Shown: one piece after another, positions 124-17,757 of the stretch
How the letters are laid out: the number at the start of each line of letters is the position of its first letter
Position numbering within the stretch: the stretch's first letter is position 1
Origin: Alphaproteobacteria bacterium
Lineage (GTDB): Bacteria; Pseudomonadota; Alphaproteobacteria; SMXQ01
DNA: 64,000 nucleotides
Reading direction: 5' to 3'
Assembly (NCBI GenBank): GCA_050485485.1
Contig: JBJHBM010000001.1
Span: 114,916 to 178,915, forward strand
Position numbers and translations under genes: made by a program
Notes under the pieces: generated by a model
The model's database searches: none
The model's input: the letters and a program-made list of their open reading frames with translations, nothing else
What the model was told of the DNA's origin: nothing

Positions 124-276
124 TTTCGCCCGCACTCTAGCCTGACTATAACGATAATGTCTATCTGGGCCATTGGTGATCGGGACTCGAAATCGCCTCC
201 GAATGCGGGGACAATGCCGCCAATCAATGCGCTCCGCCGCCGTGGGCGATGCCGGGGCATCGGAAGGGAGAACGGC

Positions 277-1758
277 ATGGCATCCGACACCACCACTCTC
301 AGCAACGAGCGACCGCCGGTTCATGCCGGCCTCCTGATCGAGGGCGCCTGGACGGAGGGTTCGGAACGGATGGACGTGCGCAATCCGGCCCATCCCTCAG
401 AACTGGTCGGCACTGCGGTCCGCGCCACGGAGGCGGACGTGGATGCCGCCGTGGCGGCCGCCAAGGCGGCGCAGCCCGCCTGGGCGGCGAAGGGCTACCG
501 GGCTCGTGCCGCCGTCATCGCCGAGGCCCTCAAGCGGCTCGAGACCGACATCGACGCGCGCGCGCTGCTCTATAGCCGCGAGAATGGCAAGACCCTGGCC
601 GAGGCCAAGGGCGAGCTGATGAGCGTGTTCATGCGCCAGCGCCTCACGCTGGAGCTGGTGGACGAGATCGAGCAGGAGCGGGTGCTGACCGACGACAACG
701 GCCGCACCTTCGTGACCCATATCCCCTACGGTGTGGTGGTTTCCATCGTGCCCTGGAACGCGCCAGTGCCGCTCGCCTTCATGCAAATCGTTCCGGCGCT
801 GCTGGCCGGCAACGCGGTGATCGTGAAACCGCCGGAGACCTGCCCGCTCGCGCTCACCCGCAGCGTCGAGATGATCGCCGACCTGTTCCCGCCGGGACTC
901 CTCGGCCTTGTCACGGGCCTGCCGGCGGAGATCGGCGACCGCCTCACCGGCCATCCCGATGTCGGCAAGGTGGCCTTCACGGGCTCGATCCCGTCGGCGC
1001 GCCACATCGCGGCCAACGCGGCCCAGACCATCAAGGGCATCACGCTGGAGCTCGGCGGCAACGACCCGGCGATCCTGCTCGACGACGTGGACCTGTCGGA
1101 CAAAACCATGAACCAGATGGCCTCGGTGGTGTTCCGCATGTCGGGCCAGGTCTGCATGGCGATCAAGCGGGTCTACGTGCCGTCCCGGATCAAGGATCGC
1201 TTTGTGGACGCCTTCGCCAAGGCCGCCGACAAGGTGGTGGTGGGCGATGGCATCCGGCCCAAGGTCACGATGGGTCCGCTGCATCAGGAGAAGGGGCTGC
1301 TGCGCGGACGCAACCTCGTGGAGGACGCGGAGACGCGCGGCGCGAGCGTGCTCAGGCTCGGCAGGATCGACGACATGGAGACCTTCCGGGAAGGTTATTT
1401 CATGCAGCCGACCATCGTCATGGACATTCCCGACGACGCGCCGCTGATGACGGAGGAGCAGTTCTGCCCGGCGCTGCCGGTTGCCGTCTACGACGACCTC
1501 GACGAGGCGGTCGCGCGCGCCAACGGCACCGTCTACGGCCTCGGCGGCTCGGTATGGAGCAAGGACGTGGACCGTGCCCTCGCGGTCGCGCGCCGCGTCG
1601 AATCGGGCACGGTTTGGGTCAACACCCACGGCACCCAGGCCATCAACCGGCGCGCGCCCTACGGCGGCATCAAGCAGTCCGGCATCGGGCGGCGCGCGGG
1701 GGTCGAGGGGATGCACGAGTACCTGCAGCTCCAGACCATCACCAGCTACGAGGCCTGA
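277..1758 (+). CDS. NAD(P)-dependent aldehyde dehydrogenase
   Basis: The ORF 157..1758 has an internal ATG at 277 preceded by GGAAGGGAG. The protein MASDTTT... (493 aa) has the ALDH family length. It carries ALDH signatures including [10 protein letters not shown], the catalytic Cys region (GQVCMA) and FTGS. Confidence 0.85.
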
Positions 1759-1849: not shown

Positions 1850-2941
1850 ATGAAGACGTCACGCATCATGGGAGCAATGGCGGCGGCCGGGCTCGCCGGG
1901 GCCGTCCTGGCCACGGGCGACGCGCGCGCCGACGCGGTGGCAGATTTCTACAAGGGCAAGACCGTCACCATCTTGATCGGCTACGACACGGGCGGCGGCT
2001 ACGACCAGTACGCGCGCGTGCTCGCGCGTCATTACGACCGCCATATTCCGGGCCGTCCCAGCGTGGTGCCGCGCAACATGACCGGCGCCGGCTCCATCGT
2101 CGCTGCCAACGCGGTCTATAACTCGCTGCCTCAGGATGGCACCAACATCGCCGCGGTCGGCCGTGGCATCGCCATGGAACCGTTGTTCGGCCGCCAGGGG
2201 CCGCAGTTCGAGGGCACCAAGATCAACTGGATCGGTTCCATGAACAACGAGGTCTCGGTGTGCGTCGTGTGGCACGAGGCCAAGGCGCCGCGCATCCAGG
2301 ACGCGATGACGAAGGAGCTGATCATCGGTGGCACCGCACAGGGTTCTGACGGGGTCGATTTCCCGATCATCCTCAACAACGTTCTCGGCACCAAGTTCCG
2401 GCTGATCACGGGCTACCCCGGCGGCTCGTCGCAGATGCTCGCGATGGAGCGGCGCGAGATCGACGGCCGCTGCGGCTGGTCGTGGTCCTCGATCAAGGCG
2501 ACCCGGCCCAACTGGATCCGTGACAAGCAGATCGACGTGACCCTCCAGATCGCGCTCAAGGGCGATCCCGACCTCGACAAGCAGGGCGTGCCGCTGGTCA
2601 TGAACCTCGCCAAGGACGACCGCGACCGCCAGATCCTGCGCCTGATCTTCGCGCGCCAGACCATGGGCCGGCCGTTCATGGCGGGACCAGGCGTGCCGGC
2701 CGAGCGCGTCGCCGCGCTGCGCGCCGCCTTCGACGCCACCATGAAGGACCCGGCGTTTCTGGCGGACGCGGAGAAGGGCAAGATGGACATCGACCCGGTT
2801 TCCGGGCAGGAGGTCCAGGACCTCGTGGCCGAGCTCTACAAGACGCCCAAGGAGCTGGTCGAGGAGGCGGCCCGCGCCACGGCGCGCACCGACCGCACCA
2901 CGATCACCGAACGCAAGGCGGATGAGTCCAAGAAGAAGTAG
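1850..2941 (+). CDS. Bug/TctC-family periplasmic solute-binding protein (tripartite tricarboxylate transporter receptor)
   Basis: Start at ATG 1850, preceded by GGAGAGG. Signal peptide MKTSRIMGAMAAAGLAGAVLA. Family signature ADFYKGKTVTILIGYDTGGGYDQYARVLARHY...PGAGS. 364 aa. The C-terminus ends ...ADESKKK. Confidence 0.85.
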   Translation: MKTSRIMGAMAAAGLAGAVLATGDARADAVADFYKGKTVTILIGYDTGGGYDQYARVLARHYDRHIPGRPSVVPRNMTGAGSIVAANAVYNSLPQDGTNIAAVGRGIAMEPLFGRQGPQFEGTKINWIGSMNNEVSVCVVWHEAKAPRIQDAMTKELIIGGTAQGSDGVDFPIILNNVLGTKFRLITGYPGGSSQMLAMERREIDGRCGWSWSSIKATRPNWIRDKQIDVTLQIALKGDPDLDKQGVPLVMNLAKDDRDRQILRLIFARQTMGRPFMAGPGVPAERVAALRAAFDATMKDPAFLADAEKGKMDIDPVSGQEVQDLVAELYKTPKELVEEAARATARTDRTTITERKADESKKK

Positions 2942-3028: not shown

Positions 3029-3333
3029 CGTGATTTCAGGATATTGCCGGGAGGTTTGGAGAAGAAGAAGGAAGATACCCGAGGGCAGATCGTTCGAATT
3101 ATTATGTTTTTGTTTTTCGCCGGGATTTTGGTTATAAGCGGTGCGCCTGCCTCTCATAACCGCGTGCCATGGAGCCGTCCGGGCGGCGGCCCGGATGCGA
3201 ACGATACGTTTTCGCCTTGCACGCCTGCCGGGGCATGTTTGAATTTCGGTCGTGCCGCGCCTCCGCGCGCCGGCCCCAACCCAGGAAAGCCGGATGCAAG
3301 GTCCGGCTGCCGATACTCAGGAGAGAGCTGAAA

Positions 3334-4812
3334 GTGGCGACAGACACAGCATCCGCGAAGAAGGGCGCCTACAAAGAGTACAGCGCGCCGCATCAGGACC
3401 TCCGCGAATGGCTCGATCGCGTGGACAACATGGGCGAACTGCTCAAGATCGACGGGGCCGACTGGAACCTCGAGATCGGCGCCGTCGCCGAGATGGTCTA
3501 TCACGAGACCCCCGACAATCCCCCGGCGCTGCTGTTCGACAACATTCCCGGCTATCCCAAGGGCTTCCGCATCCTGTCGGGCATGACCAACTCGATCAAG
3601 CGGCTGGCGCTGACCCTCGGCTTCCCCGAGCCCAGCGGGGCCATGGACGTGGTGCGCTGGTACCGCGACCGCATGAAGGATTTCGAGCCGATCCCGTCGC
3701 GCTTCGTCAACACCGGCCCGATCCTTGAGAACGTGGACCGCGACGAGGACGTGGACCTGCTCAAGTTCCCGGTGCCGCTGCTCCATGAGCTCGACGGCGG
3801 CCGCTACATCGGCACCGGCGACGTGGTCATCATGAAGGATCCGGACTCCGACTGGGTCAACTGCGGCACCTACCGCGTGATGATCCACGACAAGAACACG
3901 GTCGGCCTGTGGATGAGCCCGGGCAAGCACGGCCGCCTGATCCGCGAGAAGTACTTCAAGCAGGGCAAGCCGTGCCCCGTTGCCATCAGCGTCGGCCACG
4001 ACCCGCTGATGTTCCTCGCTGCCGGCAACGAGATCCAGTACGGCGTCTCCGAGTTCGCCTATGCGGCGGGCCATCGCGGCGCGCCGTTCGACATGATCAA
4101 GTCGGAACTGCATGGCCTGCCGGTGCCGGCCTATGGCGAAATCTGCATCGAGGGCGAGATCGTCCCCGACGACGAGCGGCCCGAGGGCCCGTTCGGCGAA
4201 TGGACCGGGTACTATGCCTCCTCCGTGCGCGAGGACCCTGTGGTGAAGGTCAAGCGCGTCTATTACCGCAACAACCCGATCATCACCATGGCGCGGCCCG
4301 GCCGCCCGCCGTCCGACTACACGCTCTCCAAGAGCGTCATCAAGTCGGCGCTGGTGTGGGACCAGGTCGAGGGCGCGGGCCTGCCCGGCGTGCAGGGCGT
4401 GTGGTGCCACCAGAACGGCGGCGGTCGCCTGTTCAACGTGATCTCGATCAAGAATTCCTACCCGGGCCATTCGCGTCAGGCGGGGCAGCTGTGCTGCAAC
4501 GTCCATGCCGGCAACTACCTGGGCCGCTGGGTGGTCGTGGTGGACGAGGACATCGATCCGTCCAACCTGTGGGACGTGACCTGGGCGATGGCCTCGCGTT
4601 GCGATCCGATCGAGGACATCGACATCACCCGCCGCGCCTGGTCGGGCGCGCTCGATCCGCGCAAGCGGGCGGGCGATAACTTCAACTCCCGCGCGATCGT
4701 CGACGCCTGCCGTCCGTTCGAGTGGAGGAGCGAATTCCCGCCGGTCGCGGAGTCCTCGCCCGAGCTCGCGGCGAAGACCCTCGATAAGTGGAAGCATTTG
4801 CTGAGCAAGTAA
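3334..4812 (+). CDS. UbiD-family (prFMN-dependent) reversible decarboxylase
   Basis: GTG start at 3334 directly after AGGAGAGAG. 492 aa with the UbiD hallmark E-x-P-E-G-P-F-G-E (RPEGPFGEWTGYY) and overall UbiD length. The codons upstream of the GTG are low-GC and rare, so they are judged non-coding. Confidence 0.85.
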   Translation: MATDTASAKKGAYKEYSAPHQDLREWLDRVDNMGELLKIDGADWNLEIGAVAEMVYHETPDNPPALLFDNIPGYPKGFRILSGMTNSIKRLALTLGFPEPSGAMDVVRWYRDRMKDFEPIPSRFVNTGPILENVDRDEDVDLLKFPVPLLHELDGGRYIGTGDVVIMKDPDSDWVNCGTYRVMIHDKNTVGLWMSPGKHGRLIREKYFKQGKPCPVAISVGHDPLMFLAAGNEIQYGVSEFAYAAGHRGAPFDMIKSELHGLPVPAYGEICIEGEIVPDDERPEGPFGEWTGYYASSVREDPVVKVKRVYYRNNPIITMARPGRPPSDYTLSKSVIKSALVWDQVEGAGLPGVQGVWCHQNGGGRLFNVISIKNSYPGHSRQAGQLCCNVHAGNYLGRWVVVVDEDIDPSNLWDVTWAMASRCDPIEDIDITRRAWSGALDPRKRAGDNFNSRAIVDACRPFEWRSEFPPVAESSPELAAKTLDKWKHLLSK

Positions 4813-4821
4813 ACCGTGTCG

Positions 4822-4850
4822 GCAAGGGCGCCCCGCAAGGGCGCCCTTGC
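4822..4850 (+). other. Perfect 12-bp-stem hairpin immediately after ubiD (GCAAGGGCGCCC-CGCAA-GGGCGCCCTTGC). It has no U-tract, so it may be an attenuator or an mRNA-stabilising stem-loop.
   Basis: Read directly from the sequence. It overlaps the 5' end of the next ORF. Confidence 0.5.
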
Positions 4851-4926
4851 TCCTTGCGTTCGCGCGTCGCGTCCTGACGCCCCGAGGGGCAGCCCCGGCG
4901 GCGCCTTTATTGCACCAGGGGAGCTC

Positions 4927-5502
4927 ATGCGCCGCCCCGGCAAACCCCAGCCTTCATTATTCAGGCAGATTTTCGGCCTGCCGTTCTGGGCCTTCGTCGC
5001 GGTCGCGGCGGCGGCCGGCATCGCCACCTGGGAGATCAAGGGACCGGCTCAGGTCGAGGCGGCCCTGCGCGGCGACCTCGACCTGCTCCTGTTCCTGCTG
5101 CCCCGGGTGCTGGGGGGTATGCTGCTCGCGGGACTCGTCCAGGTGGTGCTGCCGCCCGAGGTGGTGTCGCGCTGGGTGGGGGAGAACTCCGGCCTGCGCG
5201 GCCTCGTGATCGCGACCGTGGTGGGCGCACTCACGCCGGGCGGCCCCATGACCTCCTTCCCGATCGTGGTCGCGTTCTACATGTCCGGGGCCGATCGCGG
5301 GGCGCTGGTGGCCTATATCACGGCATGGTCGTTGCTCGGCTTCCAGCGGTTCCTGGTCTGGGAGCTGCCGCTGCTCGGGCCGGAGATCAGCCTGTTCCGC
5401 ATCCTCGTCGTGTTCTGGATGCCGGTTCTGGCCGGCCTGATCGCAAGGCGCCTGCCGTTCGGCCCGGAGACCGTTCCGCCCTCGGAAAGGGAGGGCCGCT
5501 GA
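4927..5502 (+). CDS. Predicted permease, half-size subunit 1 (YraQ/ArsP-like 'predicted permease' fold split into two genes)
   Basis: ATG 4927 after GGGGAG. Multi-TM protein with GGPMTSFPIVVAFYMSGADRGALVAYITAWSLLGFQRFLVWELPLLGPE. This is clearly paralogous to the next gene. Confidence 0.6.
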   Translation: MRRPGKPQPSLFRQIFGLPFWAFVAVAAAAGIATWEIKGPAQVEAALRGDLDLLLFLLPRVLGGMLLAGLVQVVLPPEVVSRWVGENSGLRGLVIATVVGALTPGGPMTSFPIVVAFYMSGADRGALVAYITAWSLLGFQRFLVWELPLLGPEISLFRILVVFWMPVLAGLIARRLPFGPETVPPSEREGR

Positions 5503-5503: not shown

Positions 5504-6025
5504 GTGGACCTGCCCGCCTTCGACGTTTCGCTGGTGCTGATCTGGGGGCTGGTTGTCGTGCTCGCATACCTCGCGTGGCGGCGCGGCGAAGGCCGGTTGC
5601 AGCGGGGGCTGCGGCGCGGCATCGACATCTTCCTCGTCAACGGCCCGCGCATCGTCGTGGCGCTGCTGGCCGCCGGCTTCGTCGCCTACCTGCTGCCGGA
5701 AGGCGTGATCGCCCAGTGGCTCGGCGCGGAAGCGGGCTGGCGCGGCATCCTGATCGGCTGCCTGGTGGGGCCGTTCTTCCCCGGTGGGCCGCTCGTCATC
5801 TTCCCGGTGCTGGTGGCGCTGCTCAAGGCCGGGGCGGGGGTGCCGGCGGTGTTCGCGTTCCTGACCGCCGCCTCGCTATGGGGCGTGCATCGCATCCTCA
5901 TGTTCGAGCTGCCGATGATGGGGTCGCGCTTCACCGCCAACCGCATGATCTCCTCGCTGCTGCTGCCGCCGCTCGCGGGCTTCGTCACCGGCGCCGCAAT
6001 GCAGGTGCTGGGCATCGCCTCGTAA
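5504..6025 (+). CDS. Predicted permease, half-size subunit 2 (paralog of the preceding gene)
   Basis: GTG start 1 nt after the previous stop. GGPLVIFPVLVALLKAGAGVPAVFAFLTAASLWGVHRILMFELPMMGSR aligns with the subunit-1 motif. Confidence 0.6.
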   Translation: MDLPAFDVSLVLIWGLVVVLAYLAWRRGEGRLQRGLRRGIDIFLVNGPRIVVALLAAGFVAYLLPEGVIAQWLGAEAGWRGILIGCLVGPFFPGGPLVIFPVLVALLKAGAGVPAVFAFLTAASLWGVHRILMFELPMMGSRFTANRMISSLLLPPLAGFVTGAAMQVLGIAS

Positions 6026-6186: not shown

Positions 6187-7476
6187 ATGATGACGATTCG
6201 CTACAGTTTCGCCGCGCTGGCGGCCGGCGTCCTTGCCGCGGGCTTCCTGATGGCGCCGGCGCCGGCCGCGGCCGACCCCGTGGCCGACTTCTACAAGGGC
6301 AAGCGGATGGAGATGCTGATCGGCTACTCCTCCGGCGGCGGCTACGACACCTACGCGCGCGTGGTCGCGCGCCACTGGCCGCGCCTGATCCCCGCCCAGC
6401 CCACCATGACGCCGCGCAACGTGCCGGGCGCGGGTTCGATGCGGCTGATGAACGAGATGTACAACACCCGGCCCAAGGACGGCACCGCAGTCGCGACCGT
6501 CAGCCGCGGCATCGTCCACGAGGAGTTGTGGGGCAACCAGGGCGTCCAGTTTAGGGCCAACGAGATGCACTGGATCGGCAGCGCCAATAACGAGGTGAGC
6601 GTGTGTGCGTTCTGGAAGACCGCGCCCGCCGCCACCGTCAACGACCTGCTCAACAACGAGCTGGTGGTGGGCGGCACCGGGCCGGGCGCCGACACCGACG
6701 CCTTTCCGCAGGTGATGAACAACGTGTTCGGCAGCAAGCTCAAGCTGGTGACTGGCTACCCCGGCGGCAACGACATCAACTTCGCGATCGAGCGCGGCGA
6801 GGTCCAGGGACGTTGCGGCTGGTCGTGGTCGTCGGTGGTGGCCACGCGCGCCCAGTGGCTGAAGAACAAGGACATCCTGATCCCGATCCAGATGGCGCTG
6901 ACCAAGCACGCGGACCTGGCGGACGTGCCGCTGGTGATGGACCTCGCGCGCAACGAGCGCGAGAAGCAGCTTCTGACCCTGGTGTTCGCGCGCCAGACCA
7001 TGGGGCGTCCGTTCCTCACCACCGATCAAGTGCCGGCCGAGCGCGTCGCGATGCTGCGCAAGACCTTCATGCAGCTGATGGAGGACAAGCAGTTCCTGGC
7101 GGAAACCGAGAAGGCGCGCCTCGAGATCACCCCGGTTTCGGGTGAGGAGGTCCAGCAGCTCGTCTCCAGTCTGTTCCAGTTCCCGAAGGACGTGATCGAA
7201 GCCTCCAGGCTCGCCGCCAGCGACGCCGCACGCACCCAGGTGGTGAAGGCGGTGGTGCCGGAGGTGACGGTGACGGCGCGGGTCGCAGCCGTGCAGCGCG
7301 GCGGCGAGCGTGTCCAGTGGCAAGGCGACACCGCCAAGGGCCGCGTCAACCTCGACGGCAAGACCGAGGTGACCGTCGCCGGCAACAAGGCTACGGGCGC
7401 CGACCTGAAGGAAGGCATGACCTGCGACTTCAAGATTCTCGGCGTAGAGACGGCGCTGGCGATCGCCTGCAAGTAA
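6187..7476 (+). CDS. Bug/TctC-family solute-binding protein with an extra ~65-aa C-terminal domain ending ...GMTCDFKILGVETALAIACK
   Basis: ATG 6187 after GGGAG. Signal peptide, then ADFYKGKRMEMLIGYSSGGGYDTYARVVARHW...PGAGS. 430 aa versus ~325 aa for a canonical TctC. The C-terminal domain is homologous to the two small stand-alone proteins at 16622..17462 and to the tail of the TctC at 15031..16275. Confidence 0.8.
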   Translation: MMTIRYSFAALAAGVLAAGFLMAPAPAAADPVADFYKGKRMEMLIGYSSGGGYDTYARVVARHWPRLIPAQPTMTPRNVPGAGSMRLMNEMYNTRPKDGTAVATVSRGIVHEELWGNQGVQFRANEMHWIGSANNEVSVCAFWKTAPAATVNDLLNNELVVGGTGPGADTDAFPQVMNNVFGSKLKLVTGYPGGNDINFAIERGEVQGRCGWSWSSVVATRAQWLKNKDILIPIQMALTKHADLADVPLVMDLARNEREKQLLTLVFARQTMGRPFLTTDQVPAERVAMLRKTFMQLMEDKQFLAETEKARLEITPVSGEEVQQLVSSLFQFPKDVIEASRLAASDAARTQVVKAVVPEVTVTARVAAVQRGGERVQWQGDTAKGRVNLDGKTEVTVAGNKATGADLKEGMTCDFKILGVETALAIACK

Positions 7477-7922: not shown

Positions 7923-9767
7923 ATGGCAACGACCACCAAGCCCACCGGCGCCCAGAAACCATTTCGCAAGCCGATCCCGACCCCCAAGAAGCCGAAGCTG
8001 AAGACTGCCGGGGCCGGCCGTTTCAATTCCGACGTCATCGTCGACATGCTGCACATGTACGACATGCCGTACGCCTCGCTGAACCCGGGCGCGAGCTACC
8101 GCGGCCTGCACGACAGCATGGTGAACTACGGCGGCAACTGGCCGTACATGATGCTCTGCACCCACGAGGAGACTGCGGTCCAGATCGCCCACGGCTATTC
8201 CCGCGCCACCAACAAGCCGATGGTGGCGATCGTCCACAACCTGGTCGGCCTGCTGCATTCGAACATGGCGATCTACTACGCCTACATCGACCGCGCGCCG
8301 ATCTTCATCATCGGCGCCACCGGCCCGCTGAACGAGACCAAGCGGCGCCCGAAGATCGACTGGATCCACACGGCCAACGGCCAGGGCGCGGCGATCCGCG
8401 AATACGTCAAGTTCGACGCCCAGCCGGCCACCGTGGATGGCGTCCCCGAAGCCTTCGCGCGCGCCTATTCGGTGATGATGACCCAGCCCACCGGGCCGAT
8501 CTACATGTGCTACGACGCGTGGCTCCAGGAGGAGAAGCTCGAGCACAAGGTCGAGCTGCCGCCGCCGTCGGCGGTCAAGGTGCCGTCCAAGATGGCGCCC
8601 GACCCGGAAACCCTGCGCAAGGCGGCCGAGATGCTGGTCGCTGCCAAGTTTCCGATGCTGTTGGCCGAGTTCGCGGGCCGCTCCGAGGACGGCTACAACG
8701 CGCTCGTCGATCTCGCCGACACCCTGCACTGCGCGGTCTATGACCTCGACACGCGCTGCAACTTCCCCGGCACCCACCCCTACAATATGTCGATGATCGA
8801 CGACGTGCTGAAATCGGTGGACCTCGTGGTCGGCCTCGACGCCCAGGACTGGGAGCGCCCGACCACGCGTCTGATTTCCGCCACCCGCACGCGCGAAAGC
8901 AAGATGGCGAAAGGGTGCAAGTTCATCGACATCGGCTTTGGCGAACTCAAGATCTCGGGCTGGTCGCTCGACTACCAGCGCATGATGAACTTCGACTTGC
9001 GCATCCTCGGCGATACCGACATTGCGATCCCGATGCTCACCAAGATGTGCAAGGAGATCATCGCCAAGAGCTCCGGCCTTAAGTCGAAGCTCGAGGCGCG
9101 CGGCAAGAAGCTCGCCCAGATCCACGCGAAGAAGCGGGCGGAATGGCGCAAGGTGGGTCTCGACTCGAAGATGCGCAAGATGAGCCCGATCCCGCACGCG
9201 GTGCTCGCGACGGAAATCTGGGAAGTCATCAAGGAGCACGACTGGGTACTGACCGCGAGCACGCTCGAGGACTGGACCCGGCGCATCTGGGACTTCGATG
9301 CCCACCACCGTCACCCGGGCAAGTCGATGGGCACCTCGACCCAGATCGGCACCTCGCTCGGCGTGGCCCTCGCCAACCGCGACAAGGGGCGGCTCGTGGT
9401 GGACATCCAGCCCGACGGCGACCTCATGTTCGACGCCGGCGCGCTGTGGATCGCGGCCAAGCACAACATTCCGATGCTGATCGTGATGTACAACAACCGC
9501 GCCTACTACAACGACTGGGAACACCAGATCCGCATGGCGCGGCTGCGCAAGACCGACGAAAAGAGGGCGCATATCGGTATGGACCTGTGCGATCCGGACC
9601 CGGACTTCGCCGGCCTCGCCCGCGCGATGGGCTGGTACGCCGAGGGTCCGATCGACCGCTGCGAGGACATCCAGCCGGCGTTGCGCCGCGCGATCGAGCG
9701 GGTGCGTGCCGGCCAGCCGGCGCTCGTGGACACGATCACCCAGCGTCGCGACGCGTGGAACCAGTAG
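7923..9767 (+). CDS. Thiamine-diphosphate-dependent enzyme (acetolactate-synthase / benzoylformate-decarboxylase-like) with a Lys/Pro-rich N-terminal extension
   Basis: 614 aa. PYR domain HEETAVQIAHGYSRATNKPMVAIVHNLVGLLHSNMAIYYAYIDRAPIFIIGATGP. TPP-binding GDG...N motif (DIQPDGDLMFDAGALWIAAKHNIPMLIVMYNN). RBS AGAGGA 7 nt upstream. The 915-aa ORF on the opposite strand (7026..9773) is judged spurious. Confidence 0.85.
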   Translation: MATTTKPTGAQKPFRKPIPTPKKPKLKTAGAGRFNSDVIVDMLHMYDMPYASLNPGASYRGLHDSMVNYGGNWPYMMLCTHEETAVQIAHGYSRATNKPMVAIVHNLVGLLHSNMAIYYAYIDRAPIFIIGATGPLNETKRRPKIDWIHTANGQGAAIREYVKFDAQPATVDGVPEAFARAYSVMMTQPTGPIYMCYDAWLQEEKLEHKVELPPPSAVKVPSKMAPDPETLRKAAEMLVAAKFPMLLAEFAGRSEDGYNALVDLADTLHCAVYDLDTRCNFPGTHPYNMSMIDDVLKSVDLVVGLDAQDWERPTTRLISATRTRESKMAKGCKFIDIGFGELKISGWSLDYQRMMNFDLRILGDTDIAIPMLTKMCKEIIAKSSGLKSKLEARGKKLAQIHAKKRAEWRKVGLDSKMRKMSPIPHAVLATEIWEVIKEHDWVLTASTLEDWTRRIWDFDAHHRHPGKSMGTSTQIGTSLGVALANRDKGRLVVDIQPDGDLMFDAGALWIAAKHNIPMLIVMYNNRAYYNDWEHQIRMARLRKTDEKRAHIGMDLCDPDPDFAGLARAMGWYAEGPIDRCEDIQPALRRAIERVRAGQPALVDTITQRRDAWNQ

Positions 9768-9814: not shown

Positions 9815-10402
9815 ATGCGTAGATTGGTCGTAGGCATGTCGGGTGCGTCGGGTGCCATTTACGGCATCCGCTTCCTCGAGGTTCTCAGCAAGGCCGAGGA
9901 CATCGAGGTGCACCTGATCCTGTCGGCTTCCGCGGGCCAGACCATCGTGGACGAAACCGACTGGACGGTGTCGGACGTCAAAGCGCTCGCCGACGTGGTC
10001 TACAACAACCGGGACATCGGGGCGTCGCTGTCGAGCGGCTCCTATCGCCACGACGGGATGATCGTGGCTCCGTGCTCGGTCAAGACCCTGTCCGGGATCG
10101 TCAATTCCTACGACGACAACCTGCTGACACGCGCGGCCGACGTGTCGCTCAAGGAGAAGCGGCGCGTCGTGCTGCTGGTGCGGGAGACGCCCCTGCACCT
10201 CGGCCATATCGAACTCATGGGACGGGCGGCGAGCTACGGTGCCGTCGTCATGCCGCCCGTTCCGGCCTTCTATCATCGTCCTCAGACGTTGGACGACGTG
10301 ATTAACCAGACAGTGGGCAAGGCACTGGATCTTTTCGACATTCCCCACCGGCTGTTCCGGAGGTGGAAGGAGTCGAACAACGGGGGAGGGACGACCGGCT
10401 GA
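9815..10402 (+). CDS. ubiX: Flavin prenyltransferase UbiX/Pad1 (makes prFMN for UbiD)
   Basis: MRRLVVGMSGASGAIYGIRFLEVL... 195 aa, a typical UbiX N-terminus and length. Confidence 0.9.
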   Translation: MRRLVVGMSGASGAIYGIRFLEVLSKAEDIEVHLILSASAGQTIVDETDWTVSDVKALADVVYNNRDIGASLSSGSYRHDGMIVAPCSVKTLSGIVNSYDDNLLTRAADVSLKEKRRVVLLVRETPLHLGHIELMGRAASYGAVVMPPVPAFYHRPQTLDDVINQTVGKALDLFDIPHRLFRRWKESNNGGGTTG

Positions 10403-10489
10403 GCCGCGGGCTCGGCTTTTAACCGGCATCGATCTGCACAACAACGGCGGGCGATGCATCACTCACCACTCGCAAACAGGTGGGGTGAC

Positions 10490-12649
10490 ATGGATTATCT
10501 GATGCTGATGGCGACGAGCGCCGGCGATGCCCTTGCAATCATCGGTGAGCCCTCGCGCCTCTTCTTCCTGTTCAGCGGTGTCGTCATCGGCCTCGTGCTG
10601 GGCGTCATCCCCGGTCTCGGCGGTCTCGTCGGCCTCGCGCTCCTGCTTCCCTTCACATTCGACATGGACAGATATGCGGCCTTCGCGTTCCTTCTCGGAA
10701 TGGGGGCCGTCACGACGACGTCGGATACCATACCGGCAGTGCTGTTCGGCGTGCCCGGCACGACGGGATCGGCCGCGACCATCCTCGACGGTCACCCCCT
10801 GGCGCGCCAAGGCCATGCTGGGCGCGCTTTCGGCGCGGCCTATTCGGCCTCCCTGCTGGGCGGCCTCCTGGGCGCGCTCCTGCTCGCGGTGTCGATCCCG
10901 ATCCTGCGGCCGGTGATGCTCTATCTCGGCTCGCCGGAGCTGCTGTCGTTCTCGGTGTTCGGACTGTCGATGGTGGCGGTGCTGTCGGGTTCCTCGCCGA
11001 TGCGCGGCATCGGCGCGGCCTGCCTCGGCCTCCTGATCGCCATGGTCGGCTCAGACCCGCAGACCGGCACCCTGCGCTGGACGCTGGATTCCCTCTACCT
11101 GTGGGACGGTCTGCCGCTGGTGCCCGTCACCATCGGCCTGTTCGCGCTGCCGGAGCTCGCGGACATGGCGATCAACCGGACCTCGATCGCGCGCGACGCG
11201 AAGAGCGTGAAGTTCGACACCCGTACCGGCCAGTGGCAGGGGGTGCGCGACACGCTCAACAACTGGTGGCTGGTAGTGCGCGTCGCCTGGCTCGGTGCCT
11301 CGCTCGGCGCGATCCCGGGCCTCGGCTCCTCGATCGTGGACTGGGTCTCCTACGGTCACGCGGCCCGGACCGAGCCGCGCGCGGAGGAAACCTTCGGCAA
11401 GGGCGACATTCGCGGCGTGATCGCGCCCGAATCGTGCAACAACGCCAAGGAAGGCGGATCCCTGGTGCCGACCATCGCCTTCGGCGTGCCGGGCTCGGCC
11501 TCTATGGCGATCCTGCTCGGCGCGTTCCTGATCCACGGCCTGGTTCCGGGCCCGGACATGCTGACCAAGCACCTCGACGTCACCTATTCGATGGTGTGGT
11601 CGATCGCCATCGCCAACGTGCTCGGCGCCGGCATCTGTTTCATGTTCTCGGACCAGTTCGCGAAGCTCGCGCTGCTGCGCTACTCGATCATCATGCCGCT
11701 GGTCCTGTGCGTGGTGTTCGTGGGCGCGTACCAGGGCTCGCGGCAATGGGGCGATATCTACGCCCTGCTGGTGTTCGGTACCGTCGGCTGGGTGATGAAG
11801 CGCCTGCGCTGGCCGCGTCCGCCGGTAATCCTCGGTGTCGTGCTGGGCGGAATCGTGGAACGCTACATGTTCATCTCTGTGGAGCGTTACGGCACCGAGT
11901 GGATTTTCCCGACGAGCCTGGAGAGCGTCCGCTGGGTCGTACTGATCATGTTCGCGCTCTCGATCTACGGCCTTCTGCGCCCGCTGATCAAGGAGTACAA
12001 ATACGCCGGCGGCGTCGGCGGGATGCTCCGAAGCATGGAGCCGTCGAAGCCCCACTTCGACGCTCAGACGCTGATGTACCTCTTCTTCATCGGCGTGTTC
12101 GGCTACATGATGTACGAGGCGTCCGGCTGGAACTACGACGCCAGGATCATCCCAAACATCGTGGGCTATTTCGGCCTCACCATCCTGGCGATCAGCCTGC
12201 TCAACCATACCTTCAAGAGCGTCGAGATCACCGCCGCCCAGAGGGCCGAGCAGGCGGACGAGAGCGCCATGGGCCGGCTCAAGCGCAGCATGCATCTCGA
12301 CATCTCGGTGATGGGGCCGCAGATGCCGAAGAGGCTGCTCGCGCTCAGGGCGATCGGCTATCTCGGGTGGCTGTTCTCATTCCTGCTGTCCACGGCGCTG
12401 ATCGGCATGATTCCGTCGCTGTTCCTGCTGGTGGTCGCCTACATGAAGATCGAAGGGCGGGAATCGTGGAAGCTGACGCTGTCCTGCGCGTTCGGCCTCA
12501 TGTTGTTTTCGATCGTCCTGTTCGACAAGCTCCTGGCCCTGCCGTGGCCGCAGACGGAGTTCGGCGATCTCTACCTGATGTTCGATCAGGCGGTGCTGCA
12601 ACCCCTGACCTACTGGGTCGAGGTGCAGATGGGCTGGCGGGATCCTTGA
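10490..12649 (+). CDS. Fused TctA-TctB tripartite tricarboxylate transporter membrane protein (TctA large permease domain followed by a C-terminal TctB-like 4-TM domain)
   Basis: ATG 10490 after AGGTGGGGTG. The first ~500 aa align with the stand-alone TctA at 18389..19897 (GVPGTTGSAATILDGHPLA, ETFGKGDIRGVIAPES, GGSLVPTIAFGVPGS). The last ~200 aa align with the stand-alone TctB-like protein at 17758..18399, including RESWKL. Confidence 0.85.
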   Translation: MDYLMLMATSAGDALAIIGEPSRLFFLFSGVVIGLVLGVIPGLGGLVGLALLLPFTFDMDRYAAFAFLLGMGAVTTTSDTIPAVLFGVPGTTGSAATILDGHPLARQGHAGRAFGAAYSASLLGGLLGALLLAVSIPILRPVMLYLGSPELLSFSVFGLSMVAVLSGSSPMRGIGAACLGLLIAMVGSDPQTGTLRWTLDSLYLWDGLPLVPVTIGLFALPELADMAINRTSIARDAKSVKFDTRTGQWQGVRDTLNNWWLVVRVAWLGASLGAIPGLGSSIVDWVSYGHAARTEPRAEETFGKGDIRGVIAPESCNNAKEGGSLVPTIAFGVPGSASMAILLGAFLIHGLVPGPDMLTKHLDVTYSMVWSIAIANVLGAGICFMFSDQFAKLALLRYSIIMPLVLCVVFVGAYQGSRQWGDIYALLVFGTVGWVMKRLRWPRPPVILGVVLGGIVERYMFISVERYGTEWIFPTSLESVRWVVLIMFALSIYGLLRPLIKEYKYAGGVGGMLRSMEPSKPHFDAQTLMYLFFIGVFGYMMYEASGWNYDARIIPNIVGYFGLTILAISLLNHTFKSVEITAAQRAEQADESAMGRLKRSMHLDISVMGPQMPKRLLALRAIGYLGWLFSFLLSTALIGMIPSLFLLVVAYMKIEGRESWKLTLSCAFGLMLFSIVLFDKLLALPWPQTEFGDLYLMFDQAVLQPLTYWVEVQMGWRDP

Positions 12650-12737: not shown

Positions 12738-13808
12738 TCAGGGATGCTCGATCTGGGTGAACCACTCGGTCGGCAGTTCGCGACCGAGGCCGGCCTCGCG
12801 CGCCTTGCGGTAGGCAAGGCCGCCGACCACGGTGAATTGATAGCCGATGCCGGAATAGTTGAGGAAGCAGGTGGCCTCGCGGTCGTTCGTCCGGCCGGCC
12901 ACCCGGCCGGTGACGAGGTCGGCAAGCTCGGCCATGGATTTCTCGTCCAGGCACGCGTCGGGGGCATGGACGCCCTTGCGATCCTCGGCGAGCTCGACTC
13001 CCTGGGTGCGCACCACGAGGGGCGCGTTGTCGCGCAGATGCACGGCGCGGCGCGCGCAGGCCGCGACCGCCTCGGGCGCGATCTCGGCCGGCTTGATGGA
13101 CGAATAATGCACGCCCTCCCGCACATGGTTGTGGCCGATCACGGGATCGAGGGCATTGGTGGCGCAGGCGACGATATCGGCGTCGCGGACCACCGCTTCG
13201 ACGCTCGCCGCCGCGGCGACCTCGATCCCGAGCCGTGCCGTCATGTCGCGGGCGAAGGCGGCGCGATGGGCGGGGTTGGGGCTGTAGCACACCAGCCTTT
13301 CGAGCGGCCGTACGGCGGCCATCGCCATTGCCTGCGCGCCGGCCTGCCAGCCCGAGCCGATCACCGCCGCCACCCGGGCGTCGGCGCGCGCCATGTGGCG
13401 GGCCGCGATGCCGTTGGTGGCGCCGACCCGCATCCGCTGGACCACGCCGTCCGGGAAGATCGCGAGCGGCTCGCCGTTCTCCGTGGAGAACAGCAGCACG
13501 AGCCCGACGTAGCGTCCGCCGGGCGCGGCCGGCACCTTCTCGCGCCGGGTCGAGCCCGCGACCTCGCGCCAGCCGATGATGTCGGAATTGAGCCGGATGG
13601 AGGCGAATCCCGACGGCGCATGGACGCCGTCCATGCTCTTGAGGGCGTAGACGGTGCCCGGATCGCGGGCGGGGGCGACGATCTCGGCCCGGCCCCGATT
13701 GCCCCCGCGTCCTTCGGCGAGATCGCGGTAGCCCTCCTCGAGAACGGCGATACACTCCGGCATGGCGAGCACGCGGTCGAGCTCGTCGTTGCTGAATATC
13801 CAGGTCAT
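12738..13808 (-). CDS. Ornithine cyclodeaminase / mu-crystallin family protein (paralog 2)
   Basis: 356 aa. MTWIFSNDELDRVLAMPECIAVLEEGY... with a Rossmann-type VIGSGWQAGAQ motif. About 50% identical to the upstream paralog. Confidence 0.85.
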   Translation of the reverse strand: MTWIFSNDELDRVLAMPECIAVLEEGYRDLAEGRGGNRGRAEIVAPARDPGTVYALKSMDGVHAPSGFASIRLNSDIIGWREVAGSTRREKVPAAPGGRYVGLVLLFSTENGEPLAIFPDGVVQRMRVGATNGIAARHMARADARVAAVIGSGWQAGAQAMAMAAVRPLERLVCYSPNPAHRAAFARDMTARLGIEVAAAASVEAVVRDADIVACATNALDPVIGHNHVREGVHYSSIKPAEIAPEAVAACARRAVHLRDNAPLVVRTQGVELAEDRKGVHAPDACLDEKSMAELADLVTGRVAGRTNDREATCFLNYSGIGYQFTVVGGLAYRKAREAGLGRELPTEWFTQIEHP

Positions 13809-13832: not shown

Positions 13833-14909
13833 CTACGGATGCACCGTCTCGGTGAACCAGTCGGTGGGCAAGGCGTGGCCGATGCCGCGTTCGACCGCGC
13901 GCTTGTAGATGACCGAGCCAGCCGCCGCGAACTGGTAGCCGAGGCCGAGGTTGTTCAGGAAGCAGGTGACCTCGTCCTGGCCGCCGCGGCCTTGGGCGCG
14001 GCCGACGATCAGGTCGGGCAGGGTGGGAAATTTCCCGAAATCGAGCTTGTTGGCGGCATTCCAGCCCTTTTCCTTGCTCTCCTCCTGGAACGGCGCACCC
14101 TCGGCCACCACGATGATGGGCGCGGTATCATGGGTGTGCACCGCCACCCGGTTGGCGGCGAGGATCGCGGCCGGCTCGACCTCCGGCTTCTTGATGGAGG
14201 AGACGTGCATTCCCGGTGCGATCCACTCCTTGAAGAATACCGGGTCGATGGAATTGGTACCGCACATGGCGACGTCGGCGCCGCGCACCGCTTCTTCGGG
14301 ATGGGCGACCGGACGGATGTCGACGCCGACCACCTCGCTCATGCGGACGGCGAAAGCCTCGCGGTTGTCCTTGTTGGGGGAGAATACCCGGATTTCCTCG
14401 AAGTCGCGCACTGCGCAGGCCGCGGTGAGCTGCGTCTCCGCCTGCCAGCCCGAGCCGAGCAGCCCGAGCACGCGCGAATCCTCGCGCGCCATGTACTTGA
14501 CGCCGAGCCCGTTGGTGGCGCCAACGCGGATATGCTGCAGCACGCCGTCCGGGAAGATCGCGAGCGGCTCGCCGTTGGCGGTCGAGAACAGCAGCACCAG
14601 CCCGACGTAGCGGTCGCCGGGCGCCGCCGGCACCTTCACGCGGCGCTGGGCGTTGCCGATCACCGGGTTGGTAACGATGTCGGAGTTGATGCGGATCGCG
14701 CCGACGCCGAGCGCCGGCACCACCCCGTCCATCGACTTGAGACCGTAGATCGCATCGGGCGCATAGGAGGTGGGGGCGATGCAGTCGGAGCGCTGGCGCG
14801 TGATGCCGCGCCCGTGGGCCAACTCCTTGTAGGCCTCCTCCAGCGCTGCGATGCAGTCCGGCATGGTGAGCAGGGTTTCGACGTCGTCGTTGGACAGGAT
14901 CAGGGTCAT
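13833..14909 (-). CDS. Ornithine cyclodeaminase / mu-crystallin family protein (paralog 1)
   Basis: 358 aa. MTLILSNDDVETLLTMPDCIAALEEAY... RBS GGAGG. Lies 24 nt upstream of paralog 2. Confidence 0.85.
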   Translation of the reverse strand: MTLILSNDDVETLLTMPDCIAALEEAYKELAHGRGITRQRSDCIAPTSYAPDAIYGLKSMDGVVPALGVGAIRINSDIVTNPVIGNAQRRVKVPAAPGDRYVGLVLLFSTANGEPLAIFPDGVLQHIRVGATNGLGVKYMAREDSRVLGLLGSGWQAETQLTAACAVRDFEEIRVFSPNKDNREAFAVRMSEVVGVDIRPVAHPEEAVRGADVAMCGTNSIDPVFFKEWIAPGMHVSSIKKPEVEPAAILAANRVAVHTHDTAPIIVVAEGAPFQEESKEKGWNAANKLDFGKFPTLPDLIVGRAQGRGGQDEVTCFLNNLGLGYQFAAAGSVIYKRAVERGIGHALPTDWFTETVHP

Positions 14910-14963
14910 GGGGCCTCCCGTAGGGCTGTCGTTGAACCGCCGCGGCCGTTGTTCCGGGCGGGC

Positions 14964-15003
14964 AAGGAAAAGGGCGGAGCCGTCCCGCGTCGGCCCCGCC
15001 CTT
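14964..15003 (-). terminator. Rho-independent terminator (minus strand) after the tctC-fusion gene
   Basis: Minus-strand sense reads AAGGGCGGGGCCGACGCGGGACGGCTCCGCCCTT followed by TTTCCTT. Confidence 0.6.
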
Positions 15004-15030
15004 GTTATAGCAGGCTATGAACGCCCGTGC

Positions 15031-16275
15031 TTACTTGCAATCGATGGTGACGGGCTCGTTGTCGCCGCCCGGCTTGTAGTCGATCTCGCACGCCATGCCC
15101 GCCTTGAGGGCCTCCCGGGCTCCGGGCTTGCCGCCGATGGTGATCTTGGTGCGCGCGGCCGAGATCTTGGACTTGACGTCGTTGGCGCCGTGCTTGAAGG
15201 CGATCTCCCGCCCGTCCGGCGACACGGCGGACAGGGCGGTGGCCACCTTGCTGGCGGGCGGCACGATATTCAGGATATCCGCGACCATGGCGACGATTTC
15301 CGGCGGCTGGTCAAGGGCCTCGCGCACTTTGCGCGCGAGCTCTTCGCCGTAGAGCGGGTCGACCGGCCGGTCGGCCTTGATCGCCTGGGCCTGCAGCTCG
15401 GAGTCTTCCATCGCCTTGCGATAGGCCTCGACGAGGGTTTTGGCGCGGTCGGCCGGAATGCCCGGAGGGCCGGCCGTGAAGCGTGCGATCTCTGCCTGGG
15501 AGCCGACCAGCGCGACCACCGCCTTGGCGTTGCGCTCGGTCACGATCTCGGAAAGCAGCGGTACGCCCGGGGCCGCCTTGCCGCCGATCTGGGCGATGTA
15601 GCGGCCGTAGCCGTTCTTCACGAACAGCTCGGCCGAGGACTGGGAGCCGACGGAGGCGTCGATCTCGCCCCGGCGCATGGCCAGCTCCGCGTCGGTGCCG
15701 TCGTAGCCAAGGATCAGCTTCATGTTCCAGCCGAGCACCTTGGACAGCATCATGGTGTCGTTGTAGGCTGAAGAGCCGACGCCCGCCGAGGCAAAGCGGA
15801 CGGGCGCCCTGGCCGTCCTGAGGTCGTCGAGGGTCTTGAGGTCGGTCTGCGCCGCGGCCATGATGACGCGCGGGTCGCTCGCGGCCTTGCCGATCCAGGT
15901 CATCTTGGCGAGGTCGAAGCGCACGCCCTGGCGCCCCAGAAGCTGGGAGAAGATCAGCCCGGTGTTGAAGGTGCCGATGGTCTCGCCGTCGGGCTTCGCG
16001 GCATAGAGCAGGTTGGCGCCGATGATATGGCCGGCACCCGGCACGTTGCGCACGACGAAGGTCGAGCCGGGCAGGTGGTTCTGCATGTATCTGGCCACCA
16101 GGCGGCCGTAGAAGTCGTAGCCGCCGCCCGCCGCCGTTGCCACCACGTAGGTGACGTTCTTGCCCTTGTAGTAGTCGGCACCGTCGGCCGCTGCGGCCGC
16201 GCCCGCGAGCAGGGTAGCCCCGGCGGCGACCGCCGCGCCCAGGCGGAGGCTTCTCGTAAGTTTCGGTGTCATGGG
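15031..16275 (-). CDS. Bug/TctC-family solute-binding protein with the C-terminal small domain (...ALKAGMACEIDYKPGGDNEPVTIDCK)
   Basis: ATG 16275 after AAAGGA. Signal peptide MTPKLTRSLRLGAAVAAGATLLAGAAAA. ADYYKGKNVTYVVATAAGGGYDFYGRLVARYM...PGAGH. 415 aa. Confidence 0.8.
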   Translation of the reverse strand, partial: PMTPKLTRSLRLGAAVAAGATLLAGAAAAADGADYYKGKNVTYVVATAAGGGYDFYGRLVARYMQNHLPGSTFVVRNVPGAGHIIGANLLYAAKPDGETIGTFNTGLIFSQLLGRQGVRFDLAKMTWIGKAASDPRVIMAAAQTDLKTLDDLRTARAPVRFASAGVGSSAYNDTMMLSKVLGWNMKLILGYDGTDAELAMRRGEIDASVGSQSSAELFVKNGYGRYIAQIGGKAAPGVPLLSEIVTERNAKAVVALVGSQAEIARFTAGPPGIPADRAKTLVEAYRKAMEDSELQAQAIKADRPVDPLYGEELARKVREALDQPPEIVAMVADILNIVPPASKVATALSAVSPDGREIAFKHGANDVKSKISAARTKITIGGKPGAREALKAGMACEIDYKPGGDNEPVTIDCK

Positions 16276-16569
16276 ACATGTCCTTTCAAGAGAGGACCGG
16301 ATTCCGTCGGGCCCGGATGGCGCAGGAGCGAAGCGGTGGCTTCTGGGCCGCACCATAGGCTACGCAAACTCGGTACGAGACGTGGCCGGCGGGTAGCAGG
16401 AAAGCATGCGAAGCGATGAGACGGTCCTCGGGGCTTCGCGCCTCCCGATCACAGTCGCCTTCGCCGTAGATGTTGGTAGGCGCAGGCAAAAAGGCAAGAA
16501 CCACCCCCGGGATGGTGATGCTTCGGCTGCGGCACGCCCCGGGGACGGATTCGAAACGTCTCGCGGGTA

Positions 16570-16601
16570 CGAAAAGGGGCGGGCCCGCAAGAGCCCGCCC
16601 C
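16570..16601 (-). terminator. Rho-independent terminator (minus strand) after small secreted protein 1
   Basis: Minus-strand sense reads GGGGCGGGCTCTTGCGGGCCCGCCCC followed by TTTTC. Confidence 0.65.
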
Positions 16602-16621
16602 CCAACGACGGCTATGCCGCG

Positions 16622-16879
16622 TTACTTGCAGGAGACCGTGGTGGCCTTGCCGCCATCGCCCTGCACGTCGCAGGTCATGCCGTCCTGAAGCTGGTCGCGC
16701 TTGGCGGCCTGGCCCTTGATGGTGACCTGGGTGCCGGAGTTGGAGATGGCGAACTCCTGGCCGCCGACGCTGATCTGGCGGCCTTCGTTCATGACCTGAA
16801 TCTTGCCCGACGCGGCATGGGCGCTCGCGATCAGGCCGACGGCGAACACGGACGTGAGAAGAGCACTGGTGATCTTCAT
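16622..16879 (-). CDS. Small secreted protein 1 (85 aa precursor) carrying the stand-alone GMxC...CK-COOH domain
   Basis: ATG 16879 after AAAGGA. Signal peptide MKITSALLTSVFAVGLIASAHA. Mature ~63 aa: ...TQVTIKGQAAKRDQLQDGMTCDVQGDGGKATTVSCK. Confidence 0.7.
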   Translation of the reverse strand: MKITSALLTSVFAVGLIASAHAASGKIQVMNEGRQISVGGQEFAISNSGTQVTIKGQAAKRDQLQDGMTCDVQGDGGKATTVSCK

Positions 16880-17036
16880 TTGATAATCCTTTCGAGACCC
16901 CACTCCCGACGGTGGACGACCTCCCGTGATGGGAAGGGGTGAGATCGTTTCATTTGTGAAGGTGCCGGGCCCTTGCGGGCGAGGCCTCCCGCCGGTACGC
17001 ATCTCCTTCTGATTTGTGCGTGCCCGGTCGTGAAGG

Positions 17037-17065
17037 ATATTGCGCCACTTTTTCGTTATTCGCAA
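17037..17065 (-). promoter_or_regulatory. Sigma70-like promoter for small protein 1 (TTGCGA-N17-CAATAT, minus-strand sense), giving a ~150-nt leader
   Basis: Read from the sequence. The same architecture, with the downstream leader sequence conserved, is found upstream of small protein 2. Confidence 0.55.
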
Positions 17066-17154
17066 GTAGCTCGAGTCATAGAACAATTATGTAAAACAGT
17101 AAGTTAAGATTATTACTTCAAGCGATTTGTCATAATATGTCTGGCGCCTATCGC

Positions 17155-17187
17155 AGAAAAAAAGAGGCGGGCCGTAAGGCCCGCCTC
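17155..17187 (-). terminator. Rho-independent terminator (minus strand) after small secreted protein 2
   Basis: Minus-strand sense reads GAGGCGGGCCTTACGGCCCGCCTC followed by TTTTTTTCT. Confidence 0.75.
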
Positions 17188-17207
17188 TCCACATCGGAAA
17201 TCCGATG

Positions 17208-17623: not shown

Positions 17624-17757
17624 GCGGGATTATGGGAATGCCGAAAGCCTTAACATACCGTTTTACAGGGACTTTTTTGGACGCCCCTGGGAACTTATGG
17701 GAAGGTGCCGGCCCGGCCAGCGCCTCTCTCGGACATCGCCGGCCCGGCCGGCCTGTT

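Follow-up and report, generated by a model that had tools for sequence, protein, structure and literature searches.

A conserved accessory domain with a predicted OB fold at the C-terminus of TctC-type receptors and in free, signal-peptide-bearing proteins of mostly uncultured Alphaproteobacteria

The stretch analyzed here, 64,000 nucleotides of an alphaproteobacterial contig (JBJHBM010000001.1, positions 114,916 to 178,915; hereafter, the window), encodes four receptors of the TctC/Bug family of tripartite tricarboxylate transporters (TTT), two of which end in a small additional domain with a predicted oligonucleotide/oligosaccharide-binding (OB) fold. The first of these fusions, TctC#2 (6187..7476, plus strand), is a protein of 429 amino acids (aa) that starts with a signal peptide (...APAAA/DPVADFY) and ends in ...LAIACK; the second, TctC#3 (15031..16272, minus strand), measures 413 aa and ends in ...VTIDCK. 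TctC#1 (1850..2941, plus strand; 363 aa, ending in ...ERKADESKKK) and TctC#4 (28070..29146, minus strand; 358 aa, ending in ...CQGDLCSQPKKK) are devoid of the domain. The four homologs are present as described in a first-pass annotation of the window, save that the start it gave for TctC#3 (16275) lay one codon too far; the KKK tails of the two OB-less proteins and the CxxxxC of TctC#4, to which it had drawn attention, are visible in the translations.

TctC#3 (E = 1.6e-13, 51.3 bits), TctC#1 (31.1 bits), and TctC#4 (28.4 bits) all passed the curated cut-off of the Pfam model TctC (PF03401), which is set at 27 bits. TctC#2 on its own returned no match in Pfam; the profile of its family matched TctC structures (E = 2e-11 to 7e-5) and many of its relatives are annotated as PF03401. 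Sequence, fold, and gene context together place the receptor bodies in the TctC/Bug family, and from this membership the window receptors are predicted to bind carboxylates and to deliver them to the TctAB permease.

Over their last ~70 residues, TctC#2 and TctC#3 align end to end with the mature forms of two small proteins encoded nearby. Free OB protein 1 (17208..17462, minus strand) comprises 84 aa, namely a signal peptide followed by a 61-aa domain that ends in IACK, and free OB protein 2 (16622..16879, minus strand; 85 aa, ending in VSCK; E = 1e-14 with the domain model described below) is 45% identical to it. Both have a signal-peptide-like N-terminus ending in AMA/AHA, followed by ~60 residues that close with CK. 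The receptor extensions share 34–51% identity with the free proteins across the entire domain, and a T, a G, an L, the motif G-M-x-C, and the terminal C-K are invariant among the window copies. One cysteine of TctC#2 thus lies in GMTC and the other is the penultimate residue of ...IACK. The window has a G+C content of ~68%, and real genes in it can be recognized by a G+C content at third codon positions (GC3) of ~0.9; the whole open reading frame (ORF) of TctC#2 has a GC3 of 0.90.

For an independent view of this family, a hidden Markov model (HMM) was built from 20 C-terminal tails of database relatives and zero window sequences, and was run against all stop-to-stop segments of at least 40 codons in the six frames of the 64-kb window. 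It returned four matches (E = 1.3e-20, 1.3e-17, 2.2e-15, and 8.9e-15) and no fifth up to E = 10. These are exactly the two receptor extensions and the two free proteins, as had been proposed from inspection of the letters. With the same non-window HMM, the OB domain of TctC#2 maps to 7258..7473 on the plus strand (ORF residues 403–474; E = 2e-20), so that the segment delimited earlier (7264..7476) corresponds to this domain plus the stop codon, and that of TctC#3 maps to 15034..15252 on the minus strand (ORF residues 370–442; E = 2.5e-17). A word-indexed homolog search with the 84-aa free OB protein 1 returned only the protein itself.

Relatives of TctC#2 were drawn from a collection of 5.8 billion proteins and the best 120 were taken. 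Every one of them (120/120) aligned to the end of the query and carried the OB domain with GMxC and the terminal cysteine; the full-length ones mostly measured 419–432 aa, with a few being partial or having longer N-termini. An exhaustive profile search yielded 622 cluster representatives (50% identity) at E ≤ 1e-3 and 256 at E ≤ 1e-10, whose members occur in several architectures: a TctC body with a single OB domain at the extreme C-terminus; a TctC body with two tandem OB domains (P0123, P0124, P0136, and locus L079); free proteins of 85–105 aa with a signal peptide (P0177, P0181, P0206, P0220, P0232, P0234, P0243, P0245, P0268, and others); and long secreted proteins with 3–10 weaker-scoring repeats. 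Fusions involve at least three divergent TctC subfamilies, and a subfamily-specific SGSRTK / GGR motif falls on the loops that form the usual binding face of OB folds. Neither Pfam nor NCBIfam returned anything above threshold for the OB domain, and NCBIfam holds no model for the domain or for its receptors. We conclude that the receptors of a large TctC/Bug clade, found mostly in uncultured Alphaproteobacteria, end in the OB domain as a real and conserved accessory domain of 60–72 residues, and that the free copies are signal-peptide-bearing versions of the same domain.

In the window, the free copies are embedded in a TTT gene cluster on the minus strand. It begins with tctA (18389..19897; 502 aa; Pfam TctA, E = 4e-116), continues with tctB (17758..18444; 228 aa; Pfam TctB, E = 3e-7) directly upstream of free OB genes 1 and 2, and proceeds through tctC#3::OB to two ornithine-cyclodeaminase/mu-crystallin genes (13833..14909 and 12738..13808). 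We surveyed this arrangement in one genome per species (GTDB representatives), which gave 78 loci that were annotated with the domain HMM and with TctA, TctB, and TctC of the window as queries. Almost all of them stem from uncultured Alphaproteobacteria, including Rhodospirillales, Hyphomicrobiaceae, and Xanthobacteraceae. In nine further genomes, one to three free OB genes lie directly upstream of a tctC#3-like::OB gene (L011, L013, L014, L015, L016, L019, L022, and L061, as well as L018, which is cut by the contig end), and the TctC#3 orthologs in the nine (409–489 aa) occupy the same operon position. The pair tctA-tctB is directly upstream in L011, L014, L016, L018, L019, and L022, while partial TctA or TctB-like ORFs precede the free OB genes of L013 and L015. 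In a seventh locus, the succession tctA-tctB-OB is followed by the contig end. Even the downstream TctA of ~700 aa on the opposite strand recurs as in the window (L013, L014, L019, L022, and L061). Most tctC::OB genes, that of TctC#2 included, have no adjacent free OB gene, and in three loci (L038, L053, and L085) six or seven different tctC::OB genes stand in tandem.

Since fusion and synteny point the same way, a shared function of the OB domain with TTT transport is well supported at the level of sequence. The first-pass annotation had read the coexistence of fused and stand-alone copies as a Rosetta-stone argument that the small domain works physically with TctC-type receptors; the functional half of this argument holds, and the physical contact is treated below as a proposal, since the small domain might just as well pair with TctA/TctB, with a second OB domain, or with a small ligand. 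The free OB genes themselves are real and constrained, because orthologs from different metagenome-assembled genomes have a ratio of nonsynonymous to synonymous divergence (dN/dS) of 0.13–0.31. The two free paralogs of the window gave a dN/dS of ~1.2 (pN 0.35, pS 0.31), which may mean that they diverged rapidly once duplicated, or may be an artefact caused by the strong codon bias (GC3 ~0.9).

Free OB genes were also found beside other neighbors. A hybrid sensor kinase precedes the copy in L012, a kinase and a response regulator that in L004/L005, a response regulator that in L003, and HupE/UreJ that in L002; in L009 and L010, LysR regulators are adjacent. Kinase or regulator genes thus repeatedly precede the non-TTT copies (L012 4344..7283, L004 597..962, L005 3..1573, and L003 2..568). 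The kinase of L012 is a MASE3-PAS-HisKA-HATPase-2xREC hybrid, and single REC proteins are encoded in L003, L004, and L005.

The structure predictions were confident. The AlphaFold2 model of TctC#2, computed from an alignment of 74 sequences, had a mean predicted local distance difference test (pLDDT) of 92.8 and a predicted template modeling (pTM) score of 0.84, with the linker—which is also conserved in sequence—at pLDDT 89 and the appended strands at 92–97. The latter (residues 359–370, 375–379, 384–397, 400–402, 412–418, and 422–428; all with pLDDT ≥ 89) form a small five-stranded closed beta-barrel with OB topology. Modeled alone, the free domain likewise gave an all-beta barrel (pLDDT 96.5). 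In a Foldseek search with the TctC#2 model, the best match was TBP (8HK9; E = 2e-15, target-normalized template modeling score [TMt] 0.80), and Bpro_3516, TphC, BugD, Bug27, MatC, and AdpC followed with TMt 0.67–0.78. All solved TctC matches are at most 317 residues long, and none covers the last ~75 positions of the profile. Foldseek with the free-domain model returned nothing significant, its best match being PilY2 (E = 0.15, query-normalized score [TMq] 0.67). The model thus shows a minimal OB fold, to which no solved structure is closely related.

Among 130 domains taken from the genome loci, 125 have exactly two cysteines, spaced 13–18 residues apart, and in 129 the protein ends 0–2 residues beyond the last one. 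In the model of the mature free protein, Cys47 and Cys60 sit on the strands of the final hairpin (46–52 and 54–60) and are register-matched (47 + 60 = 107, with the turn at 53). A free homolog, P0267, lacks both cysteines together. Because the two are cross-strand hairpin neighbors and the loop between them varies in length, we read the pair as a structural bond: a predicted cross-strand disulfide closing the beta4-beta5 hairpin. We had also considered GMxC...C as a metal site and downgraded this idea, given that the methionine is kept in Cys-free DUF5666 repeats (LxxGMxV) and that the cysteines are hairpin partners. Five free variants contain four or five cysteines, most of them with an extra pair in an NVCIKGxCD-type motif. 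This second pair lies mid-barrel, besides the invariant one, and always in the free copy nearest to tctC::OB (L016 3469..3870; L019 2113..2418; L022 8001..8315; L011 7021..7389; L014 8403..8705).

The absence of the domain from TctC#1, already recorded in the first-pass annotation, calls for a refinement. TctC#1 is 51% identical to TctC#2, and all 26 of its 26 closest relatives (56–76% identity, 424–462 aa) bear the OB domain, so that TctC#1 most likely descends from an OB-bearing lineage and lost the domain secondarily. The protein terminates just past the conserved linker strand (...TITERKADESKKK), and neither the domain HMM nor inspection of the region revealed an OB remnant downstream of its stop codon, where we saw hairpins only. 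More distant relatives of 330–366 aa are OB-less as well; the domain is hence optional, having been lost or gained within the TctC clade. Oligo-lysine ends are frequent among these OB-less relatives (VEKKKKK, VEKKK, AENKKK, EPKNKK, KKHKKKK, and IEKK; P0302, P0306, P0319, P0324, P0330, P0365, and others), and such a tail looks like a minimal cationic appendage replacing a cationic OB barrel. Fused OB domains carry a mean net charge of +13.7 over ~72 residues (range +1 to +21) and free ones a mean of +7, as compared with a mean of +17 over 330 residues for the receptor bodies, which puts the charge density of the fused domain at about four times that of the body.

Several further features surround these genes. 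On the minus strand, an intrinsic-terminator-like hairpin (17161..17190; 13-bp stem and T run) directly follows free OB gene 1, and a second G+C hairpin with TTTT (about 16570..16600) comes after free OB gene 2. A block of ~80 nt, GGCGCAATATC..CGACCGGGC..AATCA..CCGG.GGGAGGCC, precedes both free OB genes (within 16880..17207 and 17463..17760, minus strand). We rejected it as a conserved RNA element: its two copies are ~70% identical, much like the coding regions that follow them (66%), none of the other free-OB loci has the exact motif, and an Rfam search of 14500..18500 gave nothing credible. The block rather looks like a leader that was included in a tandem duplication.

The plus-strand TctC genes lie inside a catabolic cluster that encodes an aldehyde dehydrogenase, a UbiD-family decarboxylase, a thiamine pyrophosphate (TPP) enzyme, and a UbiX-type flavoprotein (157..1758, 3169..4812, 7923..9767, and 9815..10402). 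The best NCBIfam matches of the TPP enzyme are a generic TPP-requiring protein and then benzoylformate decarboxylase, and the succession of a TctC#2-type gene and a TPP enzyme recurs in L088 (6001..9277), a 6-Mb metagenomic contig. This cluster points to a substrate that is aromatic or a 2-oxo acid. In the membrane, the plus-strand TctC receptors probably pair with a fused TctA-TctB permease (10454..12649, plus strand; 731 aa), whose residues 36–460 match Pfam TctA and whose C-terminal 262 aa match the window TctB (17758..18444; BLASTP, E = 2e-8). Its orthologs are the ~700-aa proteins of L013, L014, L019, L022, and L061 mentioned above; fused TctAB proteins are already known and rare (PMC5812351). 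Between the UbiD decarboxylase and TctC#2 lie two adjacent half-size ArsP_1-like permease genes (4816..5502 and 5504..6025, plus strand), the first corresponding to the C-terminal half of the Pfam profile (180–292) and the second to the N-terminal half (18–130), apparently a split and permuted permease. Finally, a minus-strand gene at 31543..33186 encodes a further unusual binding-protein fusion, a 547-aa protein that combines Trypsin_2 (residues 56–185) with an OpuAC glycine-betaine-type binding domain (residues 255–531).

What might the domain do for its receptors? Most likely, it mediates a protein–protein or protein–membrane contact. It is probably independent of the substrate, because it is present on many paralogous receptors and because solved TctC proteins bind their ligands without it. 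We therefore put forward, tentatively and as plausible rather than probable, that the OB domain serves, whatever the substrate, as a docking or tethering module by which the receptor is positioned on TctAB, and that the free paralogs make the same contact in trans. The domain would lie outside the ligand pocket and would hold or orient the loaded receptor at the periplasmic face of the TctAB permease. There, the usually very cationic surface of the domain might contact the membrane or an acidic loop of the permease, and the free paralogs would engage this site too, but as accessory or modulatory subunits in their own right. In AlphaFold 3 models of the Bordetella transporter BctCBA, the receptor BctC lies on the scaffold side of BctA, with an acidic periplasmic loop close by (bioRxiv 10.64898/2026.07.27.740893).

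A number of observations weigh against this proposal. The role assigned to the free copies is ad hoc under a tether model. In six informative loci, a free OB gene has no TTT genes nearby. The window copies are nearly neutral (+1 to +3), and the charge of the domain correlates with that of the body (r = 0.78), for which reason its cationic character must in part be an effect of lineage or composition. A cationic C-terminal appendage, be it a barrel or a lysine tail, is thus hinted at as a tendency of the family and not as an invariant, and an electrostatic tether as the sole mechanism was downgraded on these two grounds.

The same charge data bear on a different explanation, according to which the domain has no partner and is a lineage-specific decoration, a stabilizing or solubility spacer on the receptor C-terminus, while the free proteins are BOF-like, general OB proteins of the periplasm that merely happen to lie in the operon. 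We consider this explanation unlikely. In its favor, charge tracks whole-protein composition, free copies occur in unrelated contexts, and the domain is evolutionarily dispensable, as seen in TctC#1 and in many relatives of 340–363 aa that do without it. A mere spacer is, however, hard to square with a sequence that is strongly conserved across hundreds of clusters, loop motifs included, with a linker that is conserved and confidently modeled, with a gene order kept in 10 genomes, and with free genes under purifying selection.

OB folds can also associate with one another, as in Stn1-Ten1, RPA32-RPA14, PriB, and the B subunits of toxins. Fused and free barrels might accordingly form an oligomerization module that clusters or caps receptors, the one to three free paralogs per operon completing a hetero-oligomer. 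The position of one to three free copies directly upstream of the fused copy in the nine further genomes would suit this scenario, as would the tandem double-OB receptors and the fast divergence of the window paralogs (dN/dS ~1.2), which is what one would expect of partner-specific surfaces—an estimate that is, however, unreliable at a GC3 of ~0.9. Yet a free OB gene is missing from the vicinity of most tctC::OB genes, TctC#2 and the arrays of six to seven genes among them, and the structural likeness to such assemblies stays at the level of the generic OB fold. We hold OB-OB association to be doubtful.

Rather improbable, in our judgement, is an accessory ligand- or metal-binding domain akin to the periplasmic OB protein CusF, which would bind a metal ion or an additional anionic ligand and either pass it on to TctC or sense it on TctC's behalf. 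Such a role would be relevant if the substrates were metal-carboxylate chelates, and BctC indeed binds Zn/Ni-citrate (bioRxiv 10.64898/2026.07.27.740893). The profile also retrieves multi-repeat proteins that match CusF_Ec and DUF5666, one methionine and two cysteines are conserved, SGSRTK / GGR occupies loops of the usual OB binding face, and one free homolog adjoins a gene for a HupE/UreJ Ni/Co permease. Against these stand the cysteines, whose cross-strand hairpin pairing at a spacing of 13–18 is typical of a periplasmic structural disulfide; the methionine, which persists in Cys-free DUF5666 repeats and so looks like a core residue; and the many paralogous receptors, presumably with different substrates, that the domain accompanies. 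An annotation or sequence artefact, i.e. a frameshifted read-through of the TctC stop codon, which the first-pass annotation had named as the finding that would undo its claim, has virtually no chance of being true: the domain is in frame, with invariant cysteines, in both window paralogs and in more than 100 relatives (among them all 120 best relatives of TctC#2, with both cysteines), the GC3 of the whole ORF is 0.90, and the fold is confidently predicted.

Taken one step beyond docking, the TTT of this clade would be four-component systems in which a disulfide-stapled OB subunit, provided in cis as part of the receptor or in trans from the free genes between tctB and tctC, docks on TctAB and is required to couple or gate the interaction of receptor and permease. 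We think this unlikely; among secondary transporters that depend on a binding protein, we know of none with such a soluble accessory subunit. Few uptake systems of the binding-protein-dependent type are as poorly understood as TTT transporters, and the TTT literature surveyed makes no mention of an experimental structure of a TTT permease. With dozens to hundreds of 'orphan' TctC receptors facing few permeases, the question arises of how the two are paired, and a domain that is found on a whole receptor clade, is absent from every studied receptor, and is also encoded in free form between permease and receptor genes offers a concrete handle on receptor–permease docking. In addition, a domain family of 622 clusters (E ≤ 1e-3), overlooked by the present models of Pfam and NCBIfam, can now be annotated, and many 'hypothetical' secreted proteins of 85–100 aa are flagged as its members. 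Should the domain be a decoration only, the gain would be a modest improvement in annotation. A recent preprint on Bordetella describes the architecture and mechanism of TTT as still poorly defined (bioRxiv 10.64898/2026.07.27.740893).

Compared with known systems, the first ~350 residues of TctC#2 and TctC#3 share the type II binding-protein fold of TctC/Bug (PF03401), along with the signal peptide and the tctA/tctB neighbors. The solved or described members of that family (BugD 2F5X, BugE 2DVZ, Bug27 2QPQ, TphC 7NDR, TBP 8HK9, MatC 6HKE, and AdpC 5OEI), however, comprise ~290–320 residues, stop after the last helix, and include none with a C-terminal OB barrel; nor is such a domain mentioned in the TTT literature searched, which included a TTT review and the paper on the TctC expansion of Rhodoplanes.

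With DUF5666 (PF18914), the OB domain shares the motif skeleton G.I..v......v.v...T.I...G......L..GM.v. The OB profile retrieves multi-repeat proteins with whole-protein E-values of 1e-15 to 1e-37, single repeats of which score 15–34 bits each, and the two that were scanned, P0150 and P0250, match PF18914 at about 1e-12. Conversely, the window copies stay below the PF18914 cut-off of 27 bits, free OB protein 2 reaching 13.6 bits (E = 0.086) and the other three giving no match, which is why we do not class the domain in PF18914. Unlike DUF5666, the TctC-associated domain has an invariant cysteine pair, the SGSRTK motif, a strictly C-terminal position, and occurs in single copies. DUF5666 itself consists of secreted beta-barrel repeats and has no known function in the literature searched; judging from these remote similarities, the TctC-associated OB domain may be a distinct, Cys-stapled offshoot of a DUF5666-like superfamily.

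TOBE/Mop domains embody the same concept, a small OB barrel on the C-terminus of a transporter component that also exists in free form. TOBE is cytoplasmic, resides on ABC ATPases, and binds molybdate, sulfate, or regulators, whereas the window domains would be periplasmic (following a signal peptide or sitting on a receptor) and carry a predicted disulfide; none of the window copies matched TOBE in Pfam, and the two kinds of domain are unrelated in sequence. CusF (PF11604) is likewise a small periplasmic OB barrel, and one distant repeat protein retrieved by the OB profile matches CusF_Ec (E = 4e-12), yet the OB domain itself shows neither a Pfam match to CusF nor the conserved His/Met/Met/Trp metal site. 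To PilY2 (PDB 3TDQ) and an S-layer self-assembly domain (PDB 9FS9), the resemblance is at the level of the fold (E ≥ 0.15, identity 7–23%). While the TctC bodies are thus of a known kind, a TctC subfamily with a previously undescribed OB accessory domain and trans-encoded copies of it is new.

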